DNA of 64,000 nucleotides. Source: a virus. Its lineage: Duplodnaviria; Caudoviricetes. Each line of letters opens with the position of its first letter. Within the stretch, counting starts at the first letter, position 1. Both the position numbers and the translations under genes were made by a program. The notes beneath the pieces are model-generated. The model was not told the origin of the DNA. It saw only the letters and a list, made by a program, of their open reading frames with translations, and did not search any database. Where the stretch lies: IMG/VR virus record IMGVR_UViG_3300017722_005389; one strand, written 5' to 3'. Shown in pieces: positions 1,972 through 53,348 of this stretch.

Positions 1972-2012
1972 TTTTAGTTTATTAACTAAAAATAAATATA
2001 AACAGTATTATT

Positions 2013-2204
2013 ATGGAAAATATAAAACAAAAAATAGTAGAAATAATTACACATACCCACAAAACACCATTTGAACAAGCAGACGAAATATTGCTTTTAT
2101 TTAATGTTAGTGGGCAAAGCGAACAGTTGTGCCAAACTTTCTTTCCTGATGGAAAAACATCGAGTGCAACTAAATGTCAATTTTGTGGAAAAGAAAAGTG
2201 GTAG
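2013..2204 (+). CDS. Hypothetical protein spanning a cassette junction; C-terminal CxxC
   Basis: 63-aa ORF; GTTAGTG at 2106 lies in codons N-V-S; ends CQFCGKEKW. Confidence 0.7.
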   Translation: MENIKQKIVEIITHTHKTPFEQADEILLLFNVSGQSEQLCQTFFPDGKTSSATKCQFCGKEKW

Positions 2205-2221
2205 CATTAATGCACAATTGA

Positions 2222-2276
2222 CACTAACGGTTTGCATATAAAAAATCGTTTTAATGTTTTTTATACGCTGTTATAA
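2222..2276 (+). repeat. attC-like site 1
   Basis: CACTAAC ... stem GCATATAAAAAA / TTTTTTATACGC around loop TCGTTTTAATG ... GTTATAA. Confidence 0.6.
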
Positions 2277-2315
2277 GTATGTATTATTTTTGTTTTACCT
2301 ATTAAAAATATAATT

Positions 2316-2477
2316 ATGGATTGTCAAAGACCAACAAAAAACGAAGAAACAGGAAAATGGGAAGTTTGGGATTTTGCTTATGAAGAAAATGGTGAAAGGT
2401 ATTACGAACTTCACGAATTTTGGGAATATAAGGATGCTATCGAGTTTTGGAAAATAAGAAACCCAAAACAAAAATAA
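2316..2477 (+). CDS. Small Trp/Glu-rich cassette protein (53 aa, not in ORF track)
   Basis: Translated by hand: MDCQRPTKNEETGKWEVWDFAYEENGERYYELHEFWEYKDAIEFWKIRNPKQK; fills the space between the inverted repeats. Confidence 0.7.
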   Translation: MDCQRPTKNEETGKWEVWDFAYEENGERYYELHEFWEYKDAIEFWKIRNPKQK

Positions 2478-2483
2478 TATTAC

Positions 2484-2537
2484 TTATAACGTCTGATGAT
2501 AAACAATCGTTTTAATGTTGTTTATCATTTGTTATAC
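2484..2537 (+). repeat. attC-like site 2
   Basis: TTATAAC ... stem TGATAAACAA / TTGTTTATCA around the same loop TCGTTTTAATG ... GTTATAC. Confidence 0.6.
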
Positions 2538-2599
2538 ACAGTACGGATTAATAAGGTAGGGTGTTGATTTGAAATACAAATAAAACTTTTTAAAAAAAT

Positions 2600-2785
2600 A
2601 TGGAACAAAAACAAATTATAGAAAAATTACTAAAAGCATCAAATGAAATTAGTAAAAATGATAAACCAAAAGAGAGTTATATTTATCTTAGTGAAGAGTA
2701 TATTCAACAAAGAGCGGATGAAGGAGGAATTTCATTTGATGATATGGTGATGATTATTGAAGAAGAATTAAAATTTAAAAAATAA
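2600..2785 (+). CDS. Hypothetical cassette protein
   Basis: 61-aa ORF inside the third unit. Confidence 0.7.
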   Translation: MEQKQIIEKLLKASNEISKNDKPKESYIYLSEEYIQQRADEGGISFDDMVMIIEEELKFKK

Positions 2786-2789
2786 AATT

Positions 2790-2948
2790 ATGACACAACA
2801 AGAAAGAACTGAATTAATTAGGGAAATTAAAGAATTAATCAAATTAGATTATGAAAGTAAAGTTAATTCAAGAGGTTCGTTATTTGATGATGAAACATTA
2901 AAATTGATGAAATCAGTTTTACAAAAATGTTTGTCTTTGAGTAATTAA
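2790..2948 (+). CDS. Small hypothetical protein (52 aa, not in ORF track)
   Basis: Translated by hand: MTQQERTELIREIKELIKLDYESKVNSRGSLFDDETLKLMKSVLQKCLSLSN; starts 4 nt after the previous stop. Confidence 0.65.
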   Translation: MTQQERTELIREIKELIKLDYESKVNSRGSLFDDETLKLMKSVLQKCLSLSN

Positions 2949-3103
2949 TTTTAAAAAGTTTTTACACATAACTTAATTAGAACGTATGATGTAGTATTGT
3001 GTATAACTATATTATATAATTACTAACTTATAATTCATTGAAAATGAATAAGAAAGAGTAAGCAACTTTAAAGATTTGTGAACAAAAACTAAAATTAATA
3101 TAA

Positions 3104-3400
3104 ATGCTAAAGGAAATTATATTTTACTCTCCAATAGAACCTTTAAAAAATATAGCAGGTACAGCGATTCTGACGATAGACTGGTACAAAAAACAGTTTA
3201 AATTTCCTATTTCAAAAGAATATTTCGAGTCTAAAGGAATTAAGTCTTTTAGTACTCATACATTAAATAGTGAAATTCCAAATCTTTCAGATGTAGTTTC
3301 ATATAATTCCAAAGATTTTAATTTTCAAGGGAAAGTTGAAAAAAGATTATTTCAGTACCCTGAAGATATTATTCACATTTTAATAAGTCCTATAAAATGA
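3104..3400 (+). CDS. Hypothetical protein
   Basis: 98-aa ORF, ATGA-coupled to the NADAR gene. Confidence 0.7.
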   Translation: MLKEIIFYSPIEPLKNIAGTAILTIDWYKKQFKFPISKEYFESKGIKSFSTHTLNSEIPNLSDVVSYNSKDFNFQGKVEKRLFQYPEDIIHILISPIK

Positions 3401-4062
3401 TAACTTTTACAACCATCAACGATGAATTCGGTTGGCTTTCAAACAAATCTAATCATACTATAACATTTCAAGATATTACATTTCCAAGGGCGGATCATTG
3501 GTTTATTTGTTCAAGATTTAATTTTGACAAAGAAATTGTAAATGAAATTTGCAAAACTTTGGATCCTCTTGAGGCAAAACAGTTATTTAAACAAATCATC
3601 AGGAAAAATCCAGAACTTCTAAAGGTAAGATTACTTTCTAAAGAAGATGTTAAGAATATGGAAATATTACTTCAAATGAAAATTGAACAGCATCCTTGGA
3701 TGAAATGGCATCTTATGTGTACTGGAAATCAAATGATTTATGAAGATGTTACCAAGAAAGCAAATGTGAATGATTCTTCGTTATTTTGGGGTGCTGCATA
3801 TATCTGTGAAAATCAGGATTATGTTGATTGTTTTTGGACAGGTGAGAATATGCTTGGAAAACTTTGGATGAATTTGAGACAATCTTTGATTGCAAATTTT
3901 TATTATAATGAATGTACAAAATCTTCGGAAAACGGATTGACTCTTTTTTTAAAACATAAGGAGACAGATGAAATTGTCCAAAGAAGTGAATTAAATTCTA
4001 ATGAAGATATAACTTCTGCTTTGATAAAAAAAATAACTGGAAAATATTATGGAAATTACTAA
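3397..4062 (+). CDS. NADAR (YbiA-like) family protein
   Basis: FGWLSN, DHWF, LxMKxxQH, TG, D..FWG and GENMLGKLWMNLR motifs. Confidence 0.8.
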   Translation: MITFTTINDEFGWLSNKSNHTITFQDITFPRADHWFICSRFNFDKEIVNEICKTLDPLEAKQLFKQIIRKNPELLKVRLLSKEDVKNMEILLQMKIEQHPWMKWHLMCTGNQMIYEDVTKKANVNDSSLFWGAAYICENQDYVDCFWTGENMLGKLWMNLRQSLIANFYYNECTKSSENGLTLFLKHKETDEIVQRSELNSNEDITSALIKKITGKYYGNY

Positions 4063-7664: not shown

Positions 7665-10083
7665 TTTTTCCATCTTCAATCGTTAGTTTTATTTCTCCTG
7701 GTTTATCTTCCAACAAGATTTCAGCTATAATCAATTTAATTTCATCGTTTACGATTCTTTTGAAGGGTCTGAATCCATACTCAATGGTATAATCTCTTTC
7801 CAAAAGAAAATCTATAACTTCTTCAGAAATTTTTAACTTTACATTATGTTTTTCAACTTGTTTTGCAAGTTTATCCAATTCTTTTCTCAAAAGAACCTTT
7901 ATATTTTCTTTTGATAGAATATTGAAATGGATAGTGTTATCAATTCTATTTATAAATTCTGGTTTGAAGAATTTTTTAACTTCTGATTCAACTATGGAAT
8001 GGTCATATTTTTTTTCAGATTTTGCGAAGCTGATTGATGACATATTTCCGATAGCCTTTTTTGTGCCGATGTTTGATGTCAGAATTATGATACTGTTTTT
8101 GAAACTAATTGTTTCGCCTTTATTATCAGTTAATCTACCTTCACCTAAAACCTGCAAAAGAATATCAAAAAGTTTCTCATGAGCTTTTTCAATTTCATCA
8201 AAAAGAATAACTGAAAATGGGTTTCTTTTGACTTTCTCAGTTAAAATTCCTCCTTCATCATATCCAATATATCCTGCAGGTGCGCCTATCAATTTTGCAA
8301 TCTCATGAGGTTGGCTATATTCACTACAGTCAATTCTTATCAATGAATCATTACTTTTAGATATGAACATTGATACTTCTTTAGTAATTTCAGTTTTACC
8401 TACCCCTGAATATCCTATAAATAAAAATGAACCTATAGGTTTATCACTATCATCTAATCCTAGTTTATTAAGCATCATAGTTTTGGTGATAGCGTTGATT
8501 GCCTCATCTTGACCTACAATTTTATCACTTAAGTGTTTTTTCAACAATTTCACATCTAATCCATCATCTGCAATAGGAATCTTTGTTATCTCTTGAACTA
8601 CATTTTTTACATCTTGAAGAGTTATGATTAATTTAGAAGTTTCTTCTTTAGCTTTACCATCTCTTTCAGCTTTTATTTTCGAAAGAATTTTATTTGATTT
8701 CTTTTTAATTTCTTCAGCTAAATGATATGCTTTATTTTTAATAATTTCTAATTTTTTCTCTTCATTTTTTTTGTATTCATCTTGAAGATTATTCAAATTA
8801 TTCGATTGGAATATTTGAAGCCTTTTCTTTGAGGCTACATCATCCATAATATCGATAGCTTTATCTGGAAGTGTTCTATAAGGCATGTATTTGTGGCTTA
8901 ATTCAACACATGCTATAATTGCATCCTGGCTATATGTAACATTATGAGTTTTCTCAAAAGAATCTTTTATGTTATTAAGAATTTTTATTGTGTTTTCTAC
9001 GGAAGGTTCTTCAACCATTACTTCGGAAAATCTTCTTATTAATGCTTTATCCTTTTCAAAATATTTTTTATACTCTGAGGTAGTTGTAGCACCAATTATT
9101 TGAAAAGATTTTCTTGCTAAATAAGGCTTCAGTATATTTGATAAGTCACCACTGCCTTCAGCTGAACCTGCTCCAATAATATTATGAATTTCATCTATAA
9201 AAAGAATTGAATTTTCATTTGAAGAAAGTTCATCTAATATAGCCTGTATTCTTTCTTCGAATACACCTCTATATTTTGTTCCAGCTACAAGCGAATTAAT
9301 ATCTAAAGAATAGATTGTCTTATTTAAAAGCTTTTTAGGAGCACTTCCTCTTACAATGTTAACAACAAGCCCTTCAACCAAATTTGTTTTGCCTACGCCC
9401 TCTCTACCAATCAATACAGCATTTCTTTTTTTGCTTCTGCAAAGTATTCGATATAGTTCGTTAATTGTATCTTCTCTACCGTAACAAGGATCGAGTTTAT
9501 TTTCACTAGCTAATTGTGTGAAATTGGTACAATACTTCTCTAAATTAAAATTTTTTGAAGTCGGTTGTTTTGGAGATCTGATTGAATATGCTTCAGCAAA
9601 TTCAAATCCACCATCATAATCTTCTTCAAAATCCATTGCTTCTAAATCTTCAGCAATTTCTTTAAATTTTTCATGGTTAACATGAAAATCATTGAAGACC
9701 TCAGTTAATTCGTTTTCAATTTGTAAGCAAGATAGAAAAATATCTACAATACTGGCTTCAGTTTTTACTTCAAATTTTATAGCATTTTCTAAAGAAAATT
9801 GTAAAATTTCATTAAGTATTTTACAATTTTTTATAGATTTCTGTTTTGTCTCTTGAGATTTGATATTTTCTACCCTTACAATTTCAACACTTTCTGTCAA
9901 TAAATCGACATCAATATTCATTTCCTCTAAAACAGATGTGACTACATTATATTTTTTATCATTTAGAATTGAAAATATTAAATGCGAAACTCTTATCTCT
10001 GAATCTTTATCTTTTACCCTTGCGTAGTTTTCAGCTTTCTTAAGGCAGCTGTCTGCAACTTCATCAAATTTTTCCATATGCAC
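7648..10083 (-). CDS. clpC: ClpC/ClpB-family double AAA+ chaperone
   Basis: Clp N-domain, GREGVGKT/ILFIDEIH, short coiled-coil middle domain, GYSGVGKT/VILFDEIEKAH, FKPEFINRID. Confidence 0.9.
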   Translation of the reverse strand: MHMEKFDEVADSCLKKAENYARVKDKDSEIRVSHLIFSILNDKKYNVVTSVLEEMNIDVDLLTESVEIVRVENIKSQETKQKSIKNCKILNEILQFSLENAIKFEVKTEASIVDIFLSCLQIENELTEVFNDFHVNHEKFKEIAEDLEAMDFEEDYDGGFEFAEAYSIRSPKQPTSKNFNLEKYCTNFTQLASENKLDPCYGREDTINELYRILCRSKKRNAVLIGREGVGKTNLVEGLVVNIVRGSAPKKLLNKTIYSLDINSLVAGTKYRGVFEERIQAILDELSSNENSILFIDEIHNIIGAGSAEGSGDLSNILKPYLARKSFQIIGATTTSEYKKYFEKDKALIRRFSEVMVEEPSVENTIKILNNIKDSFEKTHNVTYSQDAIIACVELSHKYMPYRTLPDKAIDIMDDVASKKRLQIFQSNNLNNLQDEYKKNEEKKLEIIKNKAYHLAEEIKKKSNKILSKIKAERDGKAKEETSKLIITLQDVKNVVQEITKIPIADDGLDVKLLKKHLSDKIVGQDEAINAITKTMMLNKLGLDDSDKPIGSFLFIGYSGVGKTEITKEVSMFISKSNDSLIRIDCSEYSQPHEIAKLIGAPAGYIGYDEGGILTEKVKRNPFSVILFDEIEKAHEKLFDILLQVLGEGRLTDNKGETISFKNSIIILTSNIGTKKAIGNMSSISFAKSEKKYDHSIVESEVKKFFKPEFINRIDNTIHFNILSKENIKVLLRKELDKLAKQVEKHNVKLKISEEVIDFLLERDYTIEYGFRPFKRIVNDEIKLIIAEILLEDKPGEIKLTIEDGKIKAAF

Positions 10084-16458: not shown

Positions 16459-19400
16459 ATGGATAAAAATCAACCTATAATAACAAAGTATAAAAAGTTA
16501 ACTCAAAGGTTTACTCAAGATCATCCATATGCTCCTAAAGAGGATGGTAAGGCTCCTCTTTTAACTACAAAGAATAAGAGGGAATATGACCTTAGAAAAC
16601 TTGAAAAACAGCAAACGAAATTTTTAAGTTCTCAATGGCAAAAGGTTGATACCCATATCAAGCAAAAAGCTTTAATTTTTGAAACTCAAAGATATCCTTC
16701 GTATCTTGATTATGATCTTATGGAATATTACCCTATTATCGGTCAAGCACTTGATATCTTTATGGAAGAATCTACAACCGCAAATTCTGAAGGAAGAATA
16801 TTAAATATTTTTTCAGAAAATAAGAAGATTCAAGAGGAATTAGAGGAACTATTTTTTAATAGATTGAACATTCATACGACTCTTCCAATGTGGATACGGA
16901 ATATGCCTATTAGAAAAAATAGTATGATACCTTTATTGGATGGTTCAACAATTTCTATTGAGGAGCTTTCAAGTAAAATTAAAGCAGGGGAAGATATATG
17001 GACATACTCGGTGCAACAAGAAACTAATGACATTGTTCCAGGAAAAATTGTTTGGTGTGACCTAACAATGGAAAAAACTAAATTAATTAGAGTTACTTTA
17101 GATGATGGAACTTTTGTAGATACCACTCCAGATCATGAATATATGATGAGAGATGGTTCATACAAAGCTGCTGAAAAATTAACTCCAGGTGAAAGTTTAA
17201 TGCCTTTTTATACTATTAAAAGTAATAAAAAGAGCCATAATATAGATGGTTATGAAAAAATTTATAATCCTAAAACAAATAATTATAAATTTACTCATAG
17301 AATTGTTTCGTTAAATTTATTGAAAAATAGTGAATGGGAATCAACTTTAAAAGAAAGTGTACATACACATCATATTGATTTCAATAAATTGAATAATCAT
17401 CCCAAGAATCTTGAAAGATTAACTGAATCAGCTCATAGACTATTACATAAAAATATATTAGAAAAAACTTTAATGCGAGAAGATGTAATCCAGAAAAGAA
17501 TGGAAGGCATTGATAAATATTTAAGGTCTGATGAAAGAAGGATTAGATTGTCTAATACAATGAAAGGCATCTATCCTAACTACTTTAAAGATTATAATAA
17601 TAGTTCTTTACATAAAATTCATAATACTAATAGAAAAAATAGTATGCTTCAAAATTGGAGCGATTCTTCATATAAAGATAAAGTAAAATCTTTAATGAAA
17701 TATAATTTTTCTGAAGATTGTAAAAATATTTTAAATGAAACAATTTTACAATTTTATGGAGAATGTTATAACAAAAAAGAGCTAGTTAAATTATTACTTT
17801 CTAATACTATTTTTGTAAATGCTTTTATAAATTCTAATTCTAAATTAAAAAGGAATGCTATAAAAGGTATTAACTGTAAAACTATTGATGAAATATGTGT
17901 AAGAGAATTTGGATTAAATGTTATTGATTATATGTTACATGTTAATCCTGAAATAAAAAATAATAAAAAATATCAAAAGGCTTCAGCTATATCGAATGGA
18001 AAAATAAAAAATCATAAAGTTGTTTCAGTTGTTGAATTATCTGAAGTTGATGATGTTTATTGTATGGAAGTTCTCGGTCCTAATGGTGAGCATGATAGAC
18101 ATAATTTCCCAATTTGTTCTGTAGATGAGAATGGAAAATATAGTAGAAATGGGGTGTTTGTTTCAAATTGTAAGTATGGCGATAATTTTGTCTACATGCA
18201 AATTGACGATGAATTGGGGGTTGTAGGCGCAAAACAATTACCAAATATTGAGGTTGAAAGGATAGAAGGCAAGGAAAATGCTCGAATGAAACCTTCATTA
18301 TTGAATCAAGATGATGAAGTAATCTTTCGTTGGAAGGCTACTGATATTGCTGAATTCAAATATTGGCAAGTGGCACATTTTAGACTTCTTACGGATGATA
18401 AAAGACTTCCTTATGGTGTTTCAGTTCTTGAGAAAGCAAGAAGAATTTGGAAAAATTTGCTTCTTGTGGAAGATGCAATGAGAACTATAAGATTGTTAAG
18501 AGCTATTGATAGAAGGGTTTATTATATTGATGTCGGTAATATTGATCCAAGTGATGTTCAAGCATATGTTGAGGACATTGCAAGTAGGTTTAAAAGAAAA
18601 AGACATGTTGATGAATATACTGGTCAAGAGGATTTGAAATATAATGTAATGGGTTATGACCAAGATTATTTCATTCCAAAACGTGGTGCCGAAGATAATA
18701 CAAAAATTGAGACTTTGGCAGGTGCAACTAATATTGATCAGATTGCAGATATTGAATATGATTTGAATCAATTGTTTGCAGCTCTCGGTATTCCAAAACC
18801 TTTTCTTCAATATGATGCTGCTGCAGGTGAAGGCAAAAATCTTGCAATGATGGATGTCCGATTAGCTAAAAAGATTAATCGTATTCAACAGTCTGCAGTT
18901 CAAGAATTAAATAAAATGGCAATGGTTCATCTTATGCTCTTAGGGTATGAAGATGAATTGCATAATTTTGAATTATCCTTAAATAATCCATCTTCTCAAG
19001 CGGATGTTATTCGTATAGAAATGAAAGCTGCTCAAATCACTGCATTCAAAGATGCTGTATCCGATGCAGGAAAGGGTATATCTGCTATGTCATATACAAT
19101 GGCAATGAAAGAAATTCTTGGTATGACTGATGATCAAGTCCGTTTGAACCTTGAACAACAATTCATGGAAACTGCAACTTCTGAAGAAATCAAAGCTGCT
19201 GCATCAAAAATATCTTCTTCTACAATATTTGATAATCTTATCAAACTTTATGGAACACAAGCAACAGGTTTGCCAGCAATCACTCCTGGTGCTGAAGGTG
19301 CTGACACTGGAGGTGGATTCGGTGGTGGCGGAGGCGGTGGCGGAGGTGGATCTGTCGGTGACTTAAGCAGCACACTTGGTTCATCTGGTGGTGGAGCAGA

Positions 19401-19605
19401 AATGGGTGGTGGTGCCGAAATGGGTGGTGGAGCACCTGAAGCTCCTGCTGGTGGAGCTCCTGAAGCTCCTGCTGCCCCTGAAGCACCTGCAGCTCCTGCA
19501 GCACCATTAGCAGAATCCTGGAATCCCGAATTTGAAGAGGAAATAAATGAAAATATCGAATATCTCAAAAGAATTTCGGATTTAATTGAAAAAACAAAAA
19601 TTTAA
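16459..19605 (+). CDS. Portal protein (T4 gp20-like) containing an intein
   Basis: YPIIGQALDI..EE, spliced junction WIRNM/CKYGDNF, HFRL, YGVSVLEKARRIWK.L.L.EDAM...R..RA..RRVYYIDVGN, QDYFIP; lies between terminase and protease. Confidence 0.9.
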   Translation: MDKNQPIITKYKKLTQRFTQDHPYAPKEDGKAPLLTTKNKREYDLRKLEKQQTKFLSSQWQKVDTHIKQKALIFETQRYPSYLDYDLMEYYPIIGQALDIFMEESTTANSEGRILNIFSENKKIQEELEELFFNRLNIHTTLPMWIRNMPIRKNSMIPLLDGSTISIEELSSKIKAGEDIWTYSVQQETNDIVPGKIVWCDLTMEKTKLIRVTLDDGTFVDTTPDHEYMMRDGSYKAAEKLTPGESLMPFYTIKSNKKSHNIDGYEKIYNPKTNNYKFTHRIVSLNLLKNSEWESTLKESVHTHHIDFNKLNNHPKNLERLTESAHRLLHKNILEKTLMREDVIQKRMEGIDKYLRSDERRIRLSNTMKGIYPNYFKDYNNSSLHKIHNTNRKNSMLQNWSDSSYKDKVKSLMKYNFSEDCKNILNETILQFYGECYNKKELVKLLLSNTIFVNAFINSNSKLKRNAIKGINCKTIDEICVREFGLNVIDYMLHVNPEIKNNKKYQKASAISNGKIKNHKVVSVVELSEVDDVYCMEVLGPNGEHDRHNFPICSVDENGKYSRNGVFVSNCKYGDNFVYMQIDDELGVVGAKQLPNIEVERIEGKENARMKPSLLNQDDEVIFRWKATDIAEFKYWQVAHFRLLTDDKRLPYGVSVLEKARRIWKNLLLVEDAMRTIRLLRAIDRRVYYIDVGNIDPSDVQAYVEDIASRFKRKRHVDEYTGQEDLKYNVMGYDQDYFIPKRGAEDNTKIETLAGATNIDQIADIEYDLNQLFAALGIPKPFLQYDAAAGEGKNLAMMDVRLAKKINRIQQSAVQELNKMAMVHLMLLGYEDELHNFELSLNNPSSQADVIRIEMKAAQITAFKDAVSDAGKGISAMSYTMAMKEILGMTDDQVRLNLEQQFMETATSEEIKAAASKISSSTIFDNLIKLYGTQATGLPAITPGAEGADTGGGFGGGGGGGGGGSVGDLSSTLGSSGGGAEMGGGAEMGGGAPEAPAGGAPEAPAAPEAPAAPAAPLAESWNPEFEEEINENIEYLKRISDLIEKTKI
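16906..18168 (+). mobile_element. Intein (421 aa) with HNH homing endonuclease
   Basis: Begins PIRKNS; block B TPDH; HNH region THRIV..HHIDFNKLNNHPKNL; block F VYCMEV; ends VFVSN before Cys+1. Confidence 0.85.
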
Positions 19606-38290: not shown

Positions 38291-39070
38291 TTATTTTTTT
38301 TTATAGAAATTTGGTAATGTGTTTTTTATAGCTGAATCATCGCAATTAAAATTCTTCTTCATTCGTTCTTGTTTTTTGATAAAATATAGTTTTTTAAATT
38401 TTTTGAGATTGGTACGTATGTTATCTGTATCTAATCCAGTTAGATTTCTCAAGCATTCTATTATTCTATTTTTTTCAAATTTTCTTCCGCCACCTGAATC
38501 AAAAAATAAAGCACTGTTTTTCATTATTTCAATAATACCATAACCAATCTTCAATTCATCCTCTTTAAAAATCCCAGAATTTTCATTTGAAACAATTATT
38601 TCTTCCAAAATATTTGAAAATTCTACAAAAAAATCTGATGTAAATGAATCGTATTCATCAATTTGATATGAAAATTTCTCGTCTTCTTCAATAGTAGTTG
38701 AAACTGTATCATAAGATTCTTTCCTGCTAATATTACGTCTTTCCTTTTTCTGTATAGCACTATTTCTATTTCTTATAATGGTTCCAAAGTAACTATACGC
38801 CCTTCCTTTGCCAGGTTCGTATTTTTCTATTTTGGTATGAAGAAAGCTTATCGTATCATTTAGCTGTTCATCAAAAGACATTTCTTTACATTGGAGATTG
38901 TATCTATTGATAATTGCTTCAGCCATTTTGATAAAAGGTTCTTTTAGATAAAATTCATAAAGAACCCTTCGCTCTTCTTCATCTGTAGATTTAAGATATT
39001 GCAATGTTGCAATTTCTTGGTCTTCGTCAAAATATTTTTCATTTTTTCTCTTCCTCCCTCGTTTTGCCAT
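38291..39070 (-). CDS. Late-transcription sigma-like factor (T4 gp55-like)
   Basis: YF...EIA..Y, KMAEAII, KIEKYEP.K.RAYSYFGTII, resembling the gp55 F.P.K..N.F.Y.T region. ORF track starts at 39082. Confidence 0.55.
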   Translation of the reverse strand: MAKRGRKRKNEKYFDEDQEIATLQYLKSTDEEERRVLYEFYLKEPFIKMAEAIINRYNLQCKEMSFDEQLNDTISFLHTKIEKYEPGKGRAYSYFGTIIRNRNSAIQKKERRNISRKESYDTVSTTIEEDEKFSYQIDEYDSFTSDFFVEFSNILEEIIVSNENSGIFKEDELKIGYGIIEIMKNSALFFDSGGGRKFEKNRIIECLRNLTGLDTDNIRTNLKKFKKLYFIKKQERMKKNFNCDDSAIKNTLPNFYKKK

Positions 39071-39074
39071 AAAA

Positions 39075-39851
39075 TTATACATAATTTATTTCACGGTCAT
39101 AATCAAAAAAGTATTCTTTTTTAGACATGTTGTACCAGAATTTTTTCTCAACCTCATCCATATCGCTTTGAAGATCGTGAATAGAGCCTGGTATACCGTT
39201 ATAATGTTTATATGTCATTTTAGGGATAACGTAAACCTTTTTTCCAAAATTTAGCAATCTCAAAAGAAATTCGAAATCTCCGAATTTCTTCATTGATGTT
39301 TTAAATTTGCCAACTGCTTTGAATGCCTCTAGTTTGATAGTGAGAGCATTAACATTGAAGTTATAAAGAGGTTTTTCTTTTGTTTTTTGCAAATCGAAAT
39401 ATCCAAATTTCTCCATATTTCCTGTTGCCCAAACACTTTCGTTTGAAAATCCAATCGGATTATCATTAGGATCCACTTCATAAATTAATGGAGTGAATGC
39501 ATCAACTTCTGGATAAGCCTGGATATACTTGTTGATATTCTCAATGTGATTTGGAAACATAATGTCATCCATTTGCAAAATTGAAAAATATGGGGTTAGA
39601 ATTACATCACAAGCAAAATTGATTTGTGAAGCATAATCATGCTTTCCACTATCATTAATCAATGTTACCATTCTAATGGCACGTGGAATTTCTTCAGAAA
39701 GTTTTTCGATTTCTTCGGAAATTTTAGGAGTAACAATTTGTACATAAAAATTAGGATCCTTTTGATTTTTTATAGATTCAATACATTGTACAAAGAATTC
39801 TCTATTGTTATCATTTATTTCATGAATTGGAATAATTACTGTTGTATTCAT
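39075..39851 (-). CDS. Glycosyltransferase, GT2 (GT-A)
   Basis: TVIIPIH, FSILQMDD, DFEFLLR. Confidence 0.75.
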   Translation of the reverse strand: MNTTVIIPIHEINDNNREFFVQCIESIKNQKDPNFYVQIVTPKISEEIEKLSEEIPRAIRMVTLINDSGKHDYASQINFACDVILTPYFSILQMDDIMFPNHIENINKYIQAYPEVDAFTPLIYEVDPNDNPIGFSNESVWATGNMEKFGYFDLQKTKEKPLYNFNVNALTIKLEAFKAVGKFKTSMKKFGDFEFLLRLLNFGKKVYVIPKMTYKHYNGIPGSIHDLQSDMDEVEKKFWYNMSKKEYFFDYDREINYV

Positions 39852-39853
39852 AT

Positions 39854-40930
39854 TTATTGTTCTTGTTTACTTTTAATTTCTTCTAATGTTTTCAATCTTT
39901 TTGCTACAAGGTTCTGAAATGTTTCAAGCGTTTGAGCTTCAAATTTTTCTTTTGAATAGTTATTAGCCGTATCAGCCATAACCTTATAAGTTTCTTGATT
40001 CAAGGTATCTGTGAACCATTCATCTAGGAATTTTGAAATATAATCTGGAATTGCAGAATAATTCAAAAGCCAAATACCGTTTTCTTTTATAGTGTATTTA
40101 CCATCGTCTTCTTTACCCATCCATTCTGGAACCATTTCAGGAATTTTTCCTATAACTGGAACACCGCATTTCATAGATTCAAGAGGGAATGTTCCGAAAG
40201 CTGAAATTTCATCCACCCAAACAGAAAGACAGCATTCGCTAAGATTGCTTGCAAATTGTTGTCTATCCATATTTGATGTCACCACAAATGGAACCCAAGC
40301 ATATTGAGGGTATTGAAGGTGAAATTGTTTTTCAAGTCTTTCGCCTCTGGATTTATCTCTTGTATAAAGGAAAATCTTTGGTGTTTGTGGTTTTTCAGAT
40401 GGTTTGAACTCATCATGAATATAAGGATTCACAACTGAAATATCCATGTTTCTCATGAAGTTTTCAATATGTTCCTTTTGAGCTTGTGTTGTGGTGATAA
40501 CATTTTTGATGCCGAAATTACTCCATCTTGCACCTGCACTCAAATTGAAGAAGATAAGGTCGTATACTTGAGAAATCACAACAGTTTCCCAAGGAAGTTT
40601 GATGTTATTCTGGCGCATATCTGTGAAAAAGGATTCAACCCAAACTTCTGGCAAGAAAAGAAAGTCAGAAGGTTTGACTGTAACTTTTTCAAAAGGAATA
40701 TGTGGAAGTTTGCTGTAGTTGCCACCCATCCATCCTGGAGTCATATATTCTTTGTCGTGAAGAATAAATGATTTGAATCCGAACTTTCTCAAAGATTCAA
40801 CCATATCGTAAATATATGATACAGCTCCACTCGTATTTCCTTTAGTATTTGGAACATAGAAGTAAAAAGAACCTTGATTTTCTTTTAATTCGTTGATAAA
40901 ATCTTCTAAAGTAAGTTGTTTATTTTCCAT
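39854..40930 (-). CDS. Glycosyltransferase, GT-B/GT4-like
   Basis: SGAVSYIY; WVDEISAFGTFPLESMKCGVPVIG (EX7E-like region). Confidence 0.7.
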   Translation of the reverse strand: MENKQLTLEDFINELKENQGSFYFYVPNTKGNTSGAVSYIYDMVESLRKFGFKSFILHDKEYMTPGWMGGNYSKLPHIPFEKVTVKPSDFLFLPEVWVESFFTDMRQNNIKLPWETVVISQVYDLIFFNLSAGARWSNFGIKNVITTTQAQKEHIENFMRNMDISVVNPYIHDEFKPSEKPQTPKIFLYTRDKSRGERLEKQFHLQYPQYAWVPFVVTSNMDRQQFASNLSECCLSVWVDEISAFGTFPLESMKCGVPVIGKIPEMVPEWMGKEDDGKYTIKENGIWLLNYSAIPDYISKFLDEWFTDTLNQETYKVMADTANNYSKEKFEAQTLETFQNLVAKRLKTLEEIKSKQEQ

Positions 40931-40939
40931 TGTATTATT

Positions 40940-41734
40940 TTAGTTAATCTGTTTTTTGAAGTAGTTGTTTATATCGTTAATAGAGTTAAATTCAAAAATT
41001 CTGTCACCTTTTATTTCTTTATTTTGTTCAGTGACAATTTTCAAGCAAATCTTTTTTTCAGGCTTTGTTTTGATAATGTAAGGGTCAGCTGTAATGATGA
41101 TGTCATACAGTTCCCAAATCTTTGAATAATCATAAAGGAATTTGATGTTGTTTCCTTTGAAATTATTTTGTGCGAGAAATAATAAAGTTGCAGGTTTGCT
41201 GTTTTCTCTTTCCTGGCTGACGATTGTGATTGTATAACCTTTTTTGGTTAAAGATGAATATAGCTCATCCAAATCAAACATTGCTTTTGAGTAAGTCAAT
41301 GGTGTTCTTGAGAAAATTTCAAATGCCTGGTCTTGATAAAGAAATTCAACAAATTCTTGATGGTCTTTGAATTTGAACATCTTTGTCAATCCAATCGGAT
41401 CCTCTGAATCTGAAATCTCAATAGAAGTTCTTTCAACTTCCAAAGAAACCTCTTCAGTTTCCCAAAGATCTACTGGTTTGTCTAATGAATTGTTTGTTAA
41501 ATCAAAAACCTTTAATGGCTCTATTTGCTTCACATTTGCCTCGTCAAGGATTTTCTTTTGCTCTTCTGTAAGAAGGTCTGAAGCAATAGGATTTTTTTCT
41601 TCTATTGAGTGATTTTCGAGGTCAGTATATTCTGTGAATTTTTCATTGATATCTCTTGTGTACATCTCATACGCAAAATCCACCGTTTCATAATGACCTC
41701 GAATAACCTCATTCAATGTAATACCTAATCTCAT
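40940..41734 (-). CDS. HAD-like 5'(3')-nucleotidase homologue with degenerate motif I
   Basis: RLGITLNEV in place of IDxDGV; ITIVS; DIIITADP. Confidence 0.5.
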   Translation of the reverse strand: MRLGITLNEVIRGHYETVDFAYEMYTRDINEKFTEYTDLENHSIEEKNPIASDLLTEEQKKILDEANVKQIEPLKVFDLTNNSLDKPVDLWETEEVSLEVERTSIEISDSEDPIGLTKMFKFKDHQEFVEFLYQDQAFEIFSRTPLTYSKAMFDLDELYSSLTKKGYTITIVSQERENSKPATLLFLAQNNFKGNNIKFLYDYSKIWELYDIIITADPYIIKTKPEKKICLKIVTEQNKEIKGDRIFEFNSINDINNYFKKQIN

Positions 41735-41791
41735 TATCTTTTTTATTGATAATATATAGGTTTCTTTGGTAAAGTAAAATTTATTTATTTA

Positions 41792-42433
41792 TTACAATAA
41801 ATTAGTGTTTTTTAATAGAACATCATCTTTATCTAAAAATAATATTTGCCAATTTTCTCCAAGTGATTTTTGTATATCATTTAAATTTGGTTGATTCTCA
41901 TATACTTCTTCATTAGAATATTCAGTATAAATATATTTGGTTCGATTTAAAGTTTCTTTTGCTCCTTCAAATACTAAATCTTCAGCTCCTTGAACATCCA
42001 TCCATATAAAATCTATAATTTTATTTTTTAAAAAATCAAAATCATCTAATCTAATGGTTTTTATTTTTATTTTTTCTGTAAATTTAACCCACTTATGTAT
42101 AGATAAATGTTTTTTAGGCTTTTTTAAAGAGTTACTTGCAGACCAAGGGTTATTCTTTAATAATTCAATTGGACTTTTACCTTTAAATTCCCCACTAGAT
42201 AGAAAAAAATCCGCTTCTCCATTTTTATTAGAAACAGCAAATTCAAATATTTCTGCAATATTTGTTACACCTGTGTCTTTCAATATCTTTATATTTCTCG
42301 GATCTGGTTCAAATCCGATAATTGTTGATTTTGGAGATATTTCTTTAAAAATTTTTGTATCTGTCCCAAAATGACAGCCGATTTCAACTATTAAATTGAA
42401 ATTATTCGATTTTATAAATTCATATATATTCAT
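41792..42433 (-). CDS. FkbM-family methyltransferase
   Basis: VEIGCHFG, FEPDPRN, WMDVQGAE. Start moved to give an ATGA overlap (ORF track 42466). Confidence 0.85.
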   Translation of the reverse strand: MNIYEFIKSNNFNLIVEIGCHFGTDTKIFKEISPKSTIIGFEPDPRNIKILKDTGVTNIAEIFEFAVSNKNGEADFFLSSGEFKGKSPIELLKNNPWSASNSLKKPKKHLSIHKWVKFTEKIKIKTIRLDDFDFLKNKIIDFIWMDVQGAEDLVFEGAKETLNRTKYIYTEYSNEEVYENQPNLNDIQKSLGENWQILFLDKDDVLLKNTNLL

Positions 42434-43164
42434 AATCTTTTCCAATTTTTTACTCCTAAATCCCATGATAAGTCACCTAAAAACCATGTTTTTGGATGTA
42501 TTATATTTTTTGATTTTGATAGCCATGCACCCCACCAGGCGAAACTACTATTTGATATAACAAAATTTTTACTATGTTGTAATAGTGCAAGTGTGTCCTT
42601 TTCGTTTAAATCTAGAAACACATATTCTTTTTTATTACTACTGAAATTTGAAATACACCAATTTAAATCATCAGAAATGAATATAACTTTATTTATATTT
42701 CCGAATTCATTTATAGCTTTATTATACCAATCCAAATCACAAACTAAAAAATTTTTGTTCTTTACGTAATCTGTTCTTCTAACTTGAACTACTAAATAAT
42801 CTTCCTGAATTTCAATAGTATTTTTTAAAAAGAATGTATTTCTTATTTCTTCAGAAATTTCTAAAAAATAATTTTCATTTTGAAAATATCCGCTAAAACT
42901 ATAATTAGTATTTTTATCTAAAAAATTATAAGGAAAATTTGAGTCATTTTCATATGACCCATAATATATTTTGTCTATACATTTTATATTTTTATCAAGC
43001 TTTTTTTCAGCAATATCAAAAATATCTAACATATATTTTCTAACTTTAGATGGTTTATATTCAAAAAATAATTCACAATTATATTTTTTTTCTAACATTT
43101 TACCAAATGCAAATTGAAACATTTGATTGCCCAAACCATCTGAAAGCATAATATTTATTTTCAT
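42430..43164 (-). CDS. Alpha-1,2-fucosyltransferase-like (GT11)
   Basis: GLGNQMFQ, GYFQNE, VRRTDY, NSSFAWWGAWL. Confidence 0.88.
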   Translation of the reverse strand: MKINIMLSDGLGNQMFQFAFGKMLEKKYNCELFFEYKPSKVRKYMLDIFDIAEKKLDKNIKCIDKIYYGSYENDSNFPYNFLDKNTNYSFSGYFQNENYFLEISEEIRNTFFLKNTIEIQEDYLVVQVRRTDYVKNKNFLVCDLDWYNKAINEFGNINKVIFISDDLNWCISNFSSNKKEYVFLDLNEKDTLALLQHSKNFVISNSSFAWWGAWLSKSKNIIHPKTWFLGDLSWDLGVKNWKRL

Positions 43165-43736
43165 TAAACTTTTTTAAAAATCATAATTGTATCTCTAAAC
43201 CATGTTGCATTAGTTGCACTATTTCTTAATTTAGTTGAAGCCTCAATTTCATAAGAATAACCTCTTTTTTGTAATTCTGAAACAACATAGTCATTATTTT
43301 GACAATTTACATGTCCACTTCCAGGTTGACCGATAATAGCCCAACTTAAAATAATTAAATTATTTGAATGATTGCAAATATTATTTATGAAAATTTGTTC
43401 ATATTCCTTTGGGATATGCTCACCTACTTCTAAACTCAATACACAATCAACCTTTTTACTTAAATTGAACTCTTTTGATAAATCAAGAACTTTTCCTATA
43501 CCATTTGTAAGCATTTCAGTATTTGGATTACCATCATATGCTTCACAAAAAATATTTTCTTTTATTATTGATTTTGCATAATCTCCCATACCACATCCAA
43601 AATCAATCAATGTTTTTACATTTTTTTCTTTCAAATAAGTAATTAAAGAATTGCATAAAGCAATATCATGTACATGTCCTATGCCTGAGTTTGTTTCCCA
43701 GAATCCGTTTTTATTTATTATAAAACTCTTTTTCAT
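43164..43736 (-). CDS. Class I SAM-dependent methyltransferase
   Basis: LIDFGCGMG, LSLEVGEHI, GHVNCQ. Confidence 0.82.
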   Translation of the reverse strand: MKKSFIINKNGFWETNSGIGHVHDIALCNSLITYLKEKNVKTLIDFGCGMGDYAKSIIKENIFCEAYDGNPNTEMLTNGIGKVLDLSKEFNLSKKVDCVLSLEVGEHIPKEYEQIFINNICNHSNNLIILSWAIIGQPGSGHVNCQNNDYVVSELQKRGYSYEIEASTKLRNSATNATWFRDTIMIFKKV

Positions 43737-43749
43737 TTATTTGTTATTT

Positions 43750-44460
43750 TTATTTATATATGATTTCACATTTATTTTTTAAATCGTTAAAAAGCTTTTT
43801 TATTTCATTCTCCTGTTTATTATAATGTACTCCCCATTTAAATTTTTTGTTCTCTTCAGATAGTCTACTATTAAATAGTTTATATCTATCTATTAGATAT
43901 TTTTCAGATAGGTATTTAAAATGAAATAATTTATAGCGTTCTTTAGAATACACTATTTTCCCTGAAGGAGCGCATTTGTGACATCCTGGCGAATAATTAA
44001 TTTCATTTATCTTTTTTTTATTAAATAGAACATTTTTATCATAATATTCAGTTCGAACTCCACTTTTGATGCTGTATAAATCTATAATATCATTATTATT
44101 TAAGTTTATCATATCATACCCTTCAAAATTTATTATAGTAGAATTTGAACGAATTTCATTTTTTAACATATTTTCATCTATGCTTACTAATTCATCGCAA
44201 TCACACACAAGCACCCAATCAGTATTCGAATTTTTCCAACAATTATTTTTTATTTCAAGATATTTTCCTTCAGAAATTTGGTTATTTGAATCGAAATATT
44301 CAATTTTGCAATTATTTTTTTTAGCGATTTCAACTGTTTTATCTGTGGAATAGTTATCGAATACTACGATTTCGCAGCCTGGAAATTTTTTTCTATAATG
44401 ATTAATAAAAAATTCAATCATTAATTCTTCATTATATGTAATAGTATAAATTGTTACCAT
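43750..44460 (-). CDS. Glycosyltransferase, GT2-like
   Basis: YNEELMI.FF..HY, VFDNYSTD, WVLVCDCDE. Confidence 0.8.
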   Translation of the reverse strand: MVTIYTITYNEELMIEFFINHYRKKFPGCEIVVFDNYSTDKTVEIAKKNNCKIEYFDSNNQISEGKYLEIKNNCWKNSNTDWVLVCDCDELVSIDENMLKNEIRSNSTIINFEGYDMINLNNNDIIDLYSIKSGVRTEYYDKNVLFNKKKINEINYSPGCHKCAPSGKIVYSKERYKLFHFKYLSEKYLIDRYKLFNSRLSEENKKFKWGVHYNKQENEIKKLFNDLKNKCEIIYK

Positions 44461-44473
44461 ATTTTTTGCTTTA

Positions 44474-45154
44474 TTAAATTCTTTCAGTAAGATGACTACA
44501 AGTAATTTTATTGATAACTATTCCTTTATTATTAGTGTTCTTCATAAAATCTGAAATTCTATTCCATAAATCTGCATCTGCAGGATAAATTTTACCTGTT
44601 TCTTCAAATACATCTCGATACCTCAAATTAGTTTTGGAGAAATTGATACAAGTCGCAGATCTAACTATATCTCCGCTTTTTGGATAAAATGGATTATTGA
44701 TATCTTTAGGAAGAACTTGATTATTTATATGATTAGACTTTGTTGTTATAAAAAAATAATCATTAACAAATTTAGAAATTTCTTCTAAGTGATTTGATTC
44801 CCACCAATCATCGTGATCTAAATGGCAAATATGGTAAATATTTTTCTTTAAACACAAATCAATACCATAATTTGTTGCATTAACTCCGCCTGAACACCAT
44901 AATTTTTTATCCCCCAAAGAATACTTATCTCTTTCTTTTGCATAAGGCAAATTAATCGAAAATATTTTTTCTTTAGGAATTATAGATTTAGAAATATTTA
45001 CAAATTCTTCGTTGTTATCATATTTATCTCCGATTAAAAATACTTTGTAATTAGTATAAGTTTGATTTTTTATACTATTTAATGATTTTTGTAAATATTT
45101 TATTGAATTCCCATCTTTTCTTTGATAAGTGGGTATTATTATACCTATAGTCAT
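44474..45154 (-). CDS. Glycosyltransferase, GT2
   Basis: IIIPTYQR, HLDHDDWW, ADADLW. Confidence 0.8.
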   Translation of the reverse strand: MTIGIIIPTYQRKDGNSIKYLQKSLNSIKNQTYTNYKVFLIGDKYDNNEEFVNISKSIIPKEKIFSINLPYAKERDKYSLGDKKLWCSGGVNATNYGIDLCLKKNIYHICHLDHDDWWESNHLEEISKFVNDYFFITTKSNHINNQVLPKDINNPFYPKSGDIVRSATCINFSKTNLRYRDVFEETGKIYPADADLWNRISDFMKNTNNKGIVINKITCSHLTERI

Positions 45155-45162
45155 TTTTAAAA

Positions 45163-45750
45163 TTATTTTATTTTTTTTGTTGGAGTTCCAATGTAAGTTC
45201 CAGATTCAGTTATATCTTTAATAACTCCTGAATTTAATCCAATAATAACATAATCACATATTTTAATTTTTTCTTTAGCTGTTGAATTTGTTCCTATATA
45301 TACATAATCACCAATGTTGCAATTTCCTGATACTACAACATTTGGCATTGCAGAAAAAAATTCACCTATTATTGTATCATGCCCAATATGATTTCCTCTA
45401 TTTAAAATGCAGTGTGCACCTATAGAAATATTAGTAGTTAATATACAATTTGCCCCTATAAAAGATCCCTTGCCAATTGTAATATTTTTATCAAATATTT
45501 GTGCTGATGGATGGATAAATGTAAAATATTGAGTCTCTTTTGGTAATTTGTCCACTATTTTTTTTCTAATTTCTGAATCACCTATTGCTACTAAAACTTC
45601 AAATTCATTTATATTGAATTGGCTTAGTGGTAATATTTTAGGATTATTATCTTTTATAAAAATATCATCTACAAAACATGTTAATTCTTCGCCTATTTGT
45701 GAGATTACTTCTTTTGCATGACCCCCATATCCGATTAATGCCTTTTTCAT
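45163..45750 (-). CDS. Sugar N/O-acetyltransferase (PglD/NeuD-like, hexapeptide repeats)
   Basis: IGYGGHAKEV, IHPSA, IGHD, left-handed beta-helix repeats. Confidence 0.85.
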   Translation of the reverse strand: MKKALIGYGGHAKEVISQIGEELTCFVDDIFIKDNNPKILPLSQFNINEFEVLVAIGDSEIRKKIVDKLPKETQYFTFIHPSAQIFDKNITIGKGSFIGANCILTTNISIGAHCILNRGNHIGHDTIIGEFFSAMPNVVVSGNCNIGDYVYIGTNSTAKEKIKICDYVIIGLNSGVIKDITESGTYIGTPTKKIK

Positions 45751-45754
45751 TTAA

Positions 45755-46477
45755 TTAAACTATTTTTATATATTTACATTCTTTTGTTATTTTCCATACT
45801 TTATTTATAATTGATTTTTTCCAAGTATAATATTTTTCACCCTCTCGATATAAATCCCAGGTTAAATGATAAGCAACATTTTTATTAGTATGAGCCCATT
45901 GTTTATTCAATTCTTTTACTTTTTTATATATGTTTATATCAAGATAATAAACACTCTTTATGTGGTCTAAATCAATACTTCTAAAAGTTAATAAGTTGTT
46001 GCCAGTATTTTTATATATTGGTTCGTATGGAAGATTTCTTAATTTACATTTTTCATTATAATTTTCAATTCCAATAATAGGATTAGGTAAAATATATAAA
46101 TTGTCTAGAAATAAATCTCCCGATGAAACCATTACATTTGGAAAATTTAAATTATGTAATATTTCTTCAAAAAAAGAATGTGAATTATATAAATATAAAT
46201 CCCCATCCGTAATTGTTATATATTCATATTCTTTTAATAAGGGAGTGAAATCTCTTAGAAAAATATTTATAGCATTTGCTGCAATATTTTCTTCAAATTG
46301 TATATAACCTTTTAATTTATTATTATTAGAAATGAAATATTGTTTTATTTCATTTGAACTTGAACTACTATTTTCTATAATAAAAAAATCTATACCATCA
46401 ATATATATTGATTCAAAAGATAATTTAATATGCTCAAAATTTTGAAAAGCGAAAAAAACACAGATATGTTTTTTCAT
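45755..46477 (-). CDS. Putative GT-A-fold protein
   Basis: FIIENSS, YITITDGDL (DxD), AYHLTWD; cluster context. Confidence 0.5.
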   Translation of the reverse strand: MKKHICVFFAFQNFEHIKLSFESIYIDGIDFFIIENSSSSSNEIKQYFISNNNKLKGYIQFEENIAANAINIFLRDFTPLLKEYEYITITDGDLYLYNSHSFFEEILHNLNFPNVMVSSGDLFLDNLYILPNPIIGIENYNEKCKLRNLPYEPIYKNTGNNLLTFRSIDLDHIKSVYYLDINIYKKVKELNKQWAHTNKNVAYHLTWDLYREGEKYYTWKKSIINKVWKITKECKYIKIV

Positions 46478-46483
46478 TATAAA

Positions 46484-47113
46484 TTATTTAGTATAAATTT
46501 CAAATTTAGATAAATCAGGATAAGGTAATTCTAAATCAGCATTTTCTTTTTTAGAACCATCTGTATTATAGAATTGATTCATAAGGAGCATTCCTCTAGT
46601 TGCTAATTCAGGCATCATATAAAAATTCCAACCTAGCATATCAAGATTGTCTTCATGGTAAGAACATTCATTCATTCCAGAGTATCTAGCTCTTTTAAAC
46701 CATTTATATGCATCTTCATTATCGGTTAAAATTGCTCCACCTTTACTCAATTTAAAATGTTTGTATGGACCTGTAAACGAAATACACATGTGCGTATTTG
46801 GTATATACATATCTGCAGTAAATCTTAATGCTGAATCCCATACATTTGTTGGTTGTAAGCAATATGCTCCTTTTAATGTTGTGCCTTCTACAGGAGCAAA
46901 ATTAACTTTTGCACCTGCATGTATTATTTCACAAGGAACACTTGGATAAGTTCTTGCAGGGATTGTTATTTCTAACCCTGAGACTTTCTCATACATTAAT
47001 GCTAAAAATAGTGCATTACTCTGATTGTCTACAGTTACGACATAAGGTGCATTAGTATATTTTGAAAGAGCATTTTCAAAATCTTCAGTTATTTTATATA
47101 TTCCGTTTGCCAT
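46484..47113 (-). CDS. DegT/DnrJ/EryC1/StrS sugar aminotransferase (short form)
   Basis: FE..LSKY, TYPSVP, WDSA, SFTGPYKH (PLP lysine), GGAILTD, GWNFYM. Confidence 0.82.
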   Translation of the reverse strand: MANGIYKITEDFENALSKYTNAPYVVTVDNQSNALFLALMYEKVSGLEITIPARTYPSVPCEIIHAGAKVNFAPVEGTTLKGAYCLQPTNVWDSALRFTADMYIPNTHMCISFTGPYKHFKLSKGGAILTDNEDAYKWFKRARYSGMNECSYHEDNLDMLGWNFYMMPELATRGMLLMNQFYNTDGSKKENADLELPYPDLSKFEIYTK

Positions 47114-47748: not shown

Positions 47749-47762
47749 TTATTAAAATTATA

Positions 47763-49166: not shown

Positions 49167-49195
49167 TTCTAATATTTTGGTATCTCTATATTTTT

Positions 49196-52353: not shown

Positions 52354-52411
52354 TTTTAATTAATATAATTAATTTTCTTATGAAAATAAAAAAGGTCTCT
52401 GATGAGACCTT
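52352..52411. repeat. 60-bp direct repeat, copy 1 (terminator plus leader)
   Basis: ATTTTTAATTAATATAATTAATTTTCTTATGAAAATAAAAAAGGTCTCTGATGAGACCTT, identical to 53277-53336. Confidence 0.92.
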
Positions 52412-52435
52412 AAAATTTATAAATAATAAAAATTC

Positions 52436-53254: not shown

Positions 53255-53276
53255 AAGTTATCTTATTATAAATGAT

Positions 53277-53336: not shown

Positions 53337-53348
53337 TTTGTTATAATC

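Follow-up and report, generated by a model that had tools for sequence, protein, structure and literature searches.

The stretch of DNA analysed here (called the window, 64,000 nucleotides long) comes from a tailed phage (IMG/VR record IMGVR_UViG_3300017722_005389) and carries, close to its left end, a row of small genes separated by hairpins and flanked by boxes of complementary sequence. In our judgement this row (window 1987-3103) is probably a decayed copy of an integron-like gene-cassette array which has lost its recombinase, and its units are called cassettes throughout. An initial annotation, made from the letters alone, had described two hairpins of 41 and 40 nt with a shared loop, as well as three consecutive units each starting with GTTA and ending in their own complement, and all of these elements are indeed present at the positions it gave. 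The features of the locus are the following:

1972-1986, + strand: left boundary box U0 (..TTTATTAAC), directly after the stop codon of the flanking gene 1750-1971; the homology with a related locus (L052) stops here
1987-2228, + strand: cassette 1, with an open reading frame (ORF) at 2013-2204 (63 aa) and no canonical hairpin at its 5' end
2106-2132, + strand: start box of cassette 1, GTTAGTGG, a 10-12 nt bulge and CAGTTGTGC, in frame within ORF 2013-2204
2212-2228, + strand: end box of cassette 1, GCACAATTGACACTAAC, complement of 2106-2132
2229-2269, + strand: hairpin Ha, 41 nt, 12-bp stem with one A.C mismatch, loop TCGTTTTAATG at 2246-2256
2270-2490, + strand: body of cassette 2, with start box 2270-2296, ORF 2316-2477 (53 aa) and end box 2465-2490
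2491-2530, + strand: hairpin Hb, 40 nt, 12-bp stem with a terminal G.T pair, loop TCGTTTTAATG at 2507-2517
2531-3007, + strand: body of cassette 3, with start box 2531-2544, ORFs 2600-2785 (61 aa) and 2790-2948 (52 aa), and end box 2994-3007
3008-3030, + strand: hairpin-less terminal junction TATATTATATAATTAC.., the attI-like end of the array
3044-3103, + strand: stump of the array recombinase gene, MNKKE-stop-ATLKICEQKLKLI-stop, identified by tblastn, translation and nucleotide alignment

Anatomy of the array

Hairpin Ha is preceded by TAAC (2225-2228) and followed by GTTA (2270-2273). Its loop is identical to that of Hb, and one stem position is swapped from A:T to C:G between the two, in a compensatory manner. 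Hb is of the commonest type in a wider hairpin family (see below), and its identical core is the most frequent variant (114 unique sites). A covariance model built from 60 family sites and run on the 64-kb window retrieves exactly two hairpins, with 76.7 bits for Hb and 68.3 bits for Ha on the + strand, and with 21.9 and 17.6 bits on the - strand; the next best match elsewhere (9786-9837, within the span of a ClpB-like gene; 19.7 bits, E 0.05) was treated as chance.

The complementarity between the ends of the units is most extensive in unit 2, where 2270-2296 pairs with 2465-2490 over 25 bp (10 + 15 bp), giving an anchored score of 48 against 31 for the 99th percentile of random box pairs. 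The end box of this cassette overlaps the stop codon of ORF 2316-2477, and its start box contains TATTTTTG, a match to TAnnTTTG, which we take to be the Bacteroidota -7 consensus. In unit 3, 2531-2544 pairs with 2994-3007 through 13 Watson-Crick pairs and one G.T; the score of this pairing is by itself within chance (3.5-kb search), and the pairing was accepted because the same box pair recurs in two other loci (L043 and L058) and because its end abuts the terminal junction of the family. In unit 1, the pairing of 2106-2132 with 2212-2228 consists of 7-8 bp, a 10-12-nt bulge and then 8 bp.

A hairpin family in Bacteroidota phages and genomes

Copies beyond the locus were looked for, as the initial annotation had proposed, and a degenerate pattern of the hairpin core was found in at least 120 stretches from IMG/VR contigs, which are 4-465 kb long, and in 56 stretches of bacterial genomes, mainly Flavobacteriaceae and Bacteroidales; the bacterial matches labelled as other phyla are nearly all metagenome bins. 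Two huge uncultured phages carry the hairpin as well, as does Polaribacter phage P12002L, and it crosses unrelated phage types (a 48-kb phage of siphovirus size and phages of 460-635 kb) as well as chromosomes. The window array belongs to a large and barely described family of integron-like arrays in Bacteroidota phages.

Among 60 distinct sites, AAC and GTT are invariant in all 60, the inner stem is 94% paired, and six of its 12 pairs vary on both sides. Covariation in the stem amounts to 0.321, against 0.119 after shuffling (none of 500 shuffles reaches the observed value), and falls to at most 0.08 when the partner is slid. The family site has a covarying 12-bp stem, an internal loop of 5 nt on one side and 1 nt on the other, a strand bias and a conserved loop. 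Outside TAAC and GTTA of one and the same hairpin, bases are paired in only 57% of the cells.

Solitary copies with the same core are dispersed in chromosomes (L160:5420-5520, in Olleya, upstream of pyrG; L125, L136, L150, L158, L171 and others). The solitary copies of Flavobacteriaceae have a common 3' extension (GTTAAACGAAGTTAGC .. TTGACAAAGTCAAG), no common neighbour gene was found for the Flavobacteriaceae chromosomal copies examined, and the stretches fetched around solitary copies yielded no homologue of the array recombinase. In L052 (7630-7800), an inter-cassette hairpin of about 120 nt encloses a tRNA-like fragment (..GCGGTTCAACTCCG..) and is followed by an "empty" unit of 29 nt, GTTATAAAA-loop-TTTTATAAC. 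A match between a 27-nt part of the hairpin and the cas1 gene of the Vibrio phage ICP1 (E 0.3) was treated as chance.

Offset pairing across the cassettes

For each site, the 30 nt after GTTA were searched for an anchored complement ending in AAC. A strong partner of the start box lies 210-700 nt downstream in 45% of 87 sites, against 5% of 82 sites in the upstream control, and this offset spans one small gene. Of 17 pairs of adjacent canonical sites, six score above the 99th percentile of random box pairs, and they are the closest-spaced ones (221-295 nt). The two boxes around a single hairpin pair with each other in only one of 129 cases. After the TAAC of the partner, one of three sequels follows: the same hairpin, a hairpin of another class, or a hairpin-less junction (TAAC/TA..TATATA), the last being the kind in which unit 3 of the window ends. 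Chance, as the source of the whole pattern, is ruled out by these offset-pairing counts together with the covariation of the stem.

In 37 distinct box pairs there are 48 G.T pairs and no A.C pair (G.T is conserved at box position 11 in 28 of the 37), and therefore the gene-sense strand is the one that folds well; in the classical nomenclature it would correspond to the "bottom" strand. Sites reconstituted as they would be in a circle fold at -31 to -37 kcal/mol (z -7 to -11), and the sites of the array at -13 and -18 kcal/mol. TAnnTTTG is found after GTTA in 21% of the sites, compared with 6% after shuffling. Additionally, a 105-nt unit in L095 (- strand), placed between the last hairpin and the recombinase gene, has matched start and end boxes and no ORF, so cassette frames can exist without cargo.

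Cassette turnover and the point of exchange

Comparison of related phages for cassette changes, also suggested in the initial annotation, reveals a turnover of cassettes. The flanks of the contigs L063 and L004 are 87-96% alike, and yet these contigs hold four and two cassettes, respectively. At one end, the 250 nt past TAAC/ are 100% identical between the two contigs, and the sequence ahead of it is at background level; at the other, the identity extends through ..ATCTAAC and gives way to different hairpins, which places a second breakpoint exactly at TAAC/. The sequence shared at such breakpoints is only 4-6 nt long. On the left flank of the window array, the gene 1750-1971 is common to the window, L052, L075 and L098 (80.6% nucleotide identity); in the blastn alignment, window 1731-1984 matches L052 6994-7251 at 80.6%, after which L052 continues with ..CACATAAC and a hairpin. 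The window and L052 have this flanking gene and a recombinase stump in common, and no cassette.

Based on the breakpoints at TAAC/ and on the fact that the hairpin type follows the box after it (the hairpin type is shared at 0.54 between sites with the same following box, 0.26 with the same preceding box and 0.18 in the background), the evidence places the probable exchange point at TAA/C, on the 5' side of the hairpin, so that the hairpin would belong to the cassette after it. The junction previously drawn at G/TT, after the hairpin, is thus displaced to the other side of it. If the array is turned round, its parts come in the order of a classical integron (recombinase, primary site and cassettes each ending in a hairpin), but the genes point in the opposite direction.

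The recombinase and the terminal junction

A search for tyrosine recombinases, proposed at the outset, was successful in relatives. A Pfam search (PF00589) of five multi-site viral records yielded a tyrosine recombinase of 268-271 aa in two of them, and tblastn located homologues (35-83% identity) in about 14 fetched loci, with remnants in four more. In all 14 loci examined (one of them with a broken copy) the gene is on the cassette strand, downstream of the array, and the TAAC/TA..TATATA junction, located in 12 loci, precedes the start of the recombinase match by about 35-75 nt. The junction (in its fuller form, TAAC/TAT..TATATA) is a putative entry site for cassettes, and it is exactly here that L063 and L004 diverge.

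The enzyme of the relatives scores below every curated cut-off of NCBIfam. The highest-scoring model is XerA_Arch (184 bits, cut-off 220), and XerD gives 156; the IntI model TIGR02249 gives 151 (cut-off 265), split over two stretches of which the better one spans profile positions 3-205 of 315. The enzyme is nearest to the Xer clade, a small Xer-type recombinase without the IntI insertion, and the array is hence not a classical integron. The description of the units as integron-like cassettes is supported: they have the behaviour expected of a site-specific system of this kind, and relatives with the same flanks hold different cassettes, with breakpoints at conserved boxes. One correction concerns the enzyme, which is of Xer type and not IntI.

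In the window, the junction (3008 onward) is identical to that of L113 over 17 nt (the 4 of TAAC and 13 after it); the L113 junction precedes an intact recombinase gene, and 13 other loci have a junction of this motif class. Shortly after it, at 3044-3100, residues 1-19 of the 268-aa recombinase of L124 (ORF 1159-1965) align by tblastn with 63% identity (E 0.069), which is the top, though weak, match in the 64 kb; no window match to the array recombinase is obtained at E 1e-3. The stump also aligns at the nucleotide level with the intact gene of L017, and its 19 codons include a stop. Copies with an internal deletion occur in L052 and L021. Because junction and stump are present and no intact recombinase is encoded in the 64 kb, the window array is an orphan array, comparable to the clusters of attC sites lacking integron-integrases (CALINs): its two family hairpins are 261 nt apart, a classification that presupposes attC-type sites. 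The expectation that the recombinase is supplied from elsewhere holds in that the window has no intact one, with the qualification that the array is a relic and that its adjoining gene has been reduced to a stump. In short, the array is an unremarkable example of an unusual family, and by itself it is inactive in this phage.

The cassette genes

None of the window cassette proteins has a Pfam match. Homologues of the 53-aa protein of unit 2 (78-88% identical) are found in differently boxed cassettes in L183, L186 and L187, and others lie between tRNA genes (L182) and in a plain operon (L184), so that over L182-L187 this ORF has other boxes or none. The ORFs that the unit 2 box pair encloses in L004 and L193 are unrelated to it. 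Homologues of ORF 2600-2785 of unit 3 (61 aa) form single-ORF cassettes in L192 and L193 and belong to a box-free operon in L122.

Cassette 1 has a different organization, with an N-terminal module in the place of the hairpin. A long hairpin in this 5' part was considered and rejected, since its folding is within chance (z = +0.7). The start box is read in frame, GTT-AGT being Val-Ser at codons 32-33 of ORF 2013-2204. The homologues in L189 (1400-1660) and L190 retain the full 63-aa ORF and both boxes, bulge included, and because they keep the same interrupted box we consider the box of unit 1 to be real; the unit as first drawn is only the box-to-box part of the cassette and not the whole of it. 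In L067 (3560-3860, - strand) and L102, an N-terminal module 35% identical to that of the window ORF is fused in frame to an unrelated 43-aa tail, at a similar box (8 bp, 10-nt bulge, CTGT..). A broader reading can be put forward, in which the family is a phage-borne, self-contained counterpart of the integron, with a recombinase of Xer lineage acting on folded sense-strand hairpins, whose in-frame boxes (GTT-AGN, Val-Ser) may in addition swap the C-terminal tails of small proteins; it is for this tail exchange that the fusion in L067 and L102 speaks. Taken as a whole, we hold this broader reading to be rather unlikely.

A side observation on cargo comes from L181 (Polaribacter phage P12002L, 28419-33444), where family hairpins lie between DNA methyltransferase genes, an arrangement compatible with anti-restriction cargo in the cassettes of some phages.

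Proposed mechanism

A cassette of this family consists, in order, of a hairpin site (TAAC/G-N3-stem-TCGTTTTAATG-stem-T-GTTA), a start box, one or two small genes and an end box, the latter being the complement of the start box and ending in TAAC. In the mechanism that we propose, the Xer-type recombinase, whose gene directly follows the array in intact relatives, would act on the folded gene-sense strand and cut it at TAA/C. Excised cassettes would be circular, with end box, hairpin and start box joined into one long hairpin. Re-entry would occur at the hairpin-less junction beside the recombinase gene or at another hairpin. In the window, where the recombinase gene has been deleted to 19 codons, the three cassettes would be fixed unless the enzyme comes in trans, possible sources being another part of the phage genome or a co-infecting phage. 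Within this scheme, the anatomy, the offset pairing throughout the family, the covariation of the stem, the strand bias, the linked recombinase with its fixed geometry and the cassette turnover with breakpoints at TAAC/ are observed, and catalysis by the recombinase, the single-stranded nature of the substrate and the circular intermediates are inferred.

Several observations weigh against it. Excision, integration, circles and enzyme activity are predictions drawn from sequence. The boxes are mismatched in some cassettes, and one breakpoint between relatives falls inside an ORF, which means that homologous recombination also shuffles these regions. The recombinase is seen in the fetched flanks of only about 14 of about 120 loci, and the Pfam scan finds no tyrosine recombinase (PF00589) among the 69 window ORFs of at least 110 aa. 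The loop is strongly conserved, whereas the centre of classical attC sites varies, and such conservation could suggest a role for a regulatory protein or RNA; likewise, the G.T pairs on the sense strand suit an RNA structure equally well. Finally, the hairpin copies in chromosomes are solitary and lie in ordinary intergenic regions.

Alternative explanations

A first alternative is a regulatory cassette of the type known from T4-like phages as promoter early stem-loops (PeSLs), that is, a hairpin terminator with a host-type promoter box, shuffled via homologous recombination between repeats of about 50 nt. The hyperplastic regions of T4-like phages have been described in this way, mini-circles of PeSLs are documented as well (PMC2839356, PMC4122927), and the window is itself T4-like (gp20, gp23, S77), with its array among small early-type genes. 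The TATTTTTG element in the start box of unit 2, the excess of TAnnTTTG after GTTA and the in-ORF breakpoint point in the same direction. Nevertheless, the -7 box is present in only one fifth of the sites, the element is found in unrelated phage types and in chromosomes, and homologous recombination between repeats explains neither the breakpoints that fall exactly at TAAC/ with so few common nucleotides, nor the complementarity of start and end boxes across a gene (absent between the boxes around one hairpin), nor the hairpin-less junction and the fixed linkage and geometry of the tyrosine recombinase, so that we regard a PeSL-type cassette as unlikely. An element acting at the RNA level, in which each ORF is enclosed by pairing of its 5' and 3' untranslated ends and the hairpin between units signals processing or stability (as a target of a double-strand-specific RNase, for instance), would make the cassette appearance a by-product of selection on mRNA structure; it would account well for the covariation of the stem, for the covariance model scores that differ by strand and for the better pairing of the mRNA-sense strand (the G.T excess and the conserved box position 11). 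The same element would leave the recombinase linkage, the terminal junction and the turnover at TAAC/ unexplained, no Rfam family matches it, an ORF-less unit exists (in L095), and, if the likely -7 box inside the start box of unit 2 is used, the transcript would miss the 5' arm; we judge it quite improbable.

The GTTA-to-TAAC units with their inverted repeats of 14-26 bp, together with the solitary hairpins dispersed in Flavobacteriaceae chromosomes, also recall small transposon-like units with terminal inverted repeats of their own, or palindromic hairpins resembling miniature inverted-repeat transposable elements, with no tyrosine recombination involved. There are, however, no target-site duplications and no transposase in the window or beside the arrays; insertion of a palindrome predicts "closed" sites, in which both boxes around a hairpin pair with each other, and these are rare; and between units there is always exactly one hairpin, with a single type of junction beside the recombinase at the end of the array. 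This possibility is therefore very remote, and a decayed integron-like cassette array remains the explanation that we favour.

The phage setting of the window

The window is from a T4-like phage of Bacteroidota, for which the Pfam scan identified a gp20-type portal, a gp23 capsid protein, an S77 prohead protease and a terminase; around the array it identified an RNA ligase, a NADAR protein and a ClpB-like ATPase. The array is positioned among small early-type genes, in a block bracketed by the RNA ligase (17-874) and the NADAR-domain protein (3397-4059). A tRNA scan and an Rfam scan of the array region returned nothing relevant. A DNA search of phage collections for near and distant matches, with a 2.1-kb query, matched the hairpin alone and yielded no close sequenced relative.

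Elsewhere in the window, the T4-type portal gene (gp20 family, 16459-19602) encodes 1048 aa, of which residues 158-540 are an intein splicing domain. A run of about 20 kb on the - strand (38291-58274) is devoted to sugar modification, with many glycosyltransferases of families 1, 2 and 11, FkbM and other methyltransferases, a hexapeptide acyltransferase, a DegT-type aminotransferase and a UDP-glucose dehydrogenase; a beta-lactamase-fold protein, an IMPDH/GMP-reductase-like protein and a dUTPase are encoded in the same region.

Significance

A question in the field is where integron cassettes and attC sites originate. A large family of arrays of attC-like sites in Bacteroidota phages would demonstrate that the integron design does not depend on IntI, because they are served by a Xer-type enzyme and the same small genes occur inside and outside cassettes. 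The family would offer tractable material on the birth of cassettes and on the exchange of accessory genes between phages. As for the window, a block of small early genes would be explained as captured cassettes, and the locus would exhibit one mode of array decay, in which only a stump is left of the recombinase gene and the sites stay intact.

Comparison with known systems

Clusters of attC sites (CALINs) in virulent phages have already been reported (Qi et al. 2023, PMC9892861), so that to speak of a new route to accessory-gene diversity, as was initially done, is an overstatement. One of the sites of that study, P12002L_attC1, was called as attC by HattCI (supplementary Table S3, PMC9892861); the sequence of its oligonucleotide, which we found in L181, is a member of the present hairpin family. 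Of the six phage sites studied, it was the only one without a verified attC x attI1 product with IntI1 (PMC9892861). Classical integrons are rare in Bacteroidota according to IntegronFinder 2.0 (PMC9024848). Our literature search found no paper describing this hairpin family or its recombinase, and the loop sequence led only to an unrelated plant paper.

With integrons and CALINs, the family has in common the arrays of cassettes of one or two genes bounded by imperfect hairpins with invariant AAC...GTT, the asymmetric internal loop and strand-specific folding, the hairpin-less, putative primary site by a tyrosine recombinase gene and the frequency of orphan arrays. In both, moreover, the start of a cassette is complementary to its own end, a signature of circular permutation which window units 1-3 show. 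In contrast to integrons, the recombinase of 268-271 aa falls below the model cut-offs for both IntI and Xer and does not qualify as an IntI-type integrase; the loop is conserved; the complementary arms are of 14-26 bp and not about 7; the genes are on the folding strand, that is, reversed in the classical frame; about a fifth of the sites (21%) carry the TAnnTTTG match in the start box; and the family site P12002L_attC1 was not recombined by IntI1 in the published assay (PMC9892861).

The PeSLs of T4-like phages are similar in that, as their abstracts describe them (PMC2839356, PMC4122927), a conserved intergenic stem-loop with a promoter-like sequence lies between small accessory genes and is linked to gene gain, loss and replacement between close relatives, with small circles predicted. 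They differ in that exchange is there attributed to homologous recombination, without a dedicated enzyme or primary site, and the same abstracts mention neither a complementarity of unit ends spanning a gene nor an AAC/GTT core. The present element, unlike PeSLs, crosses phage families and enters chromosomes.

A third comparison is with Xer-dependent modules, such as the plasmid dif (pdif) modules of Acinetobacter plasmids and the integrative mobile elements exploiting Xer (IMEX), in which small gene modules are bounded by sites for a recombinase of the Xer family. The likeness lies in the enzyme, the present recombinase being closest to the Xer clade. No 11-6-11 dif-like core was noticed in our sites, no search having been made for such cores; instead, the sites of this family are long hairpins with a conserved loop, and the enzyme is encoded by the phage, beside the array, rather than being the XerC/D of the host.

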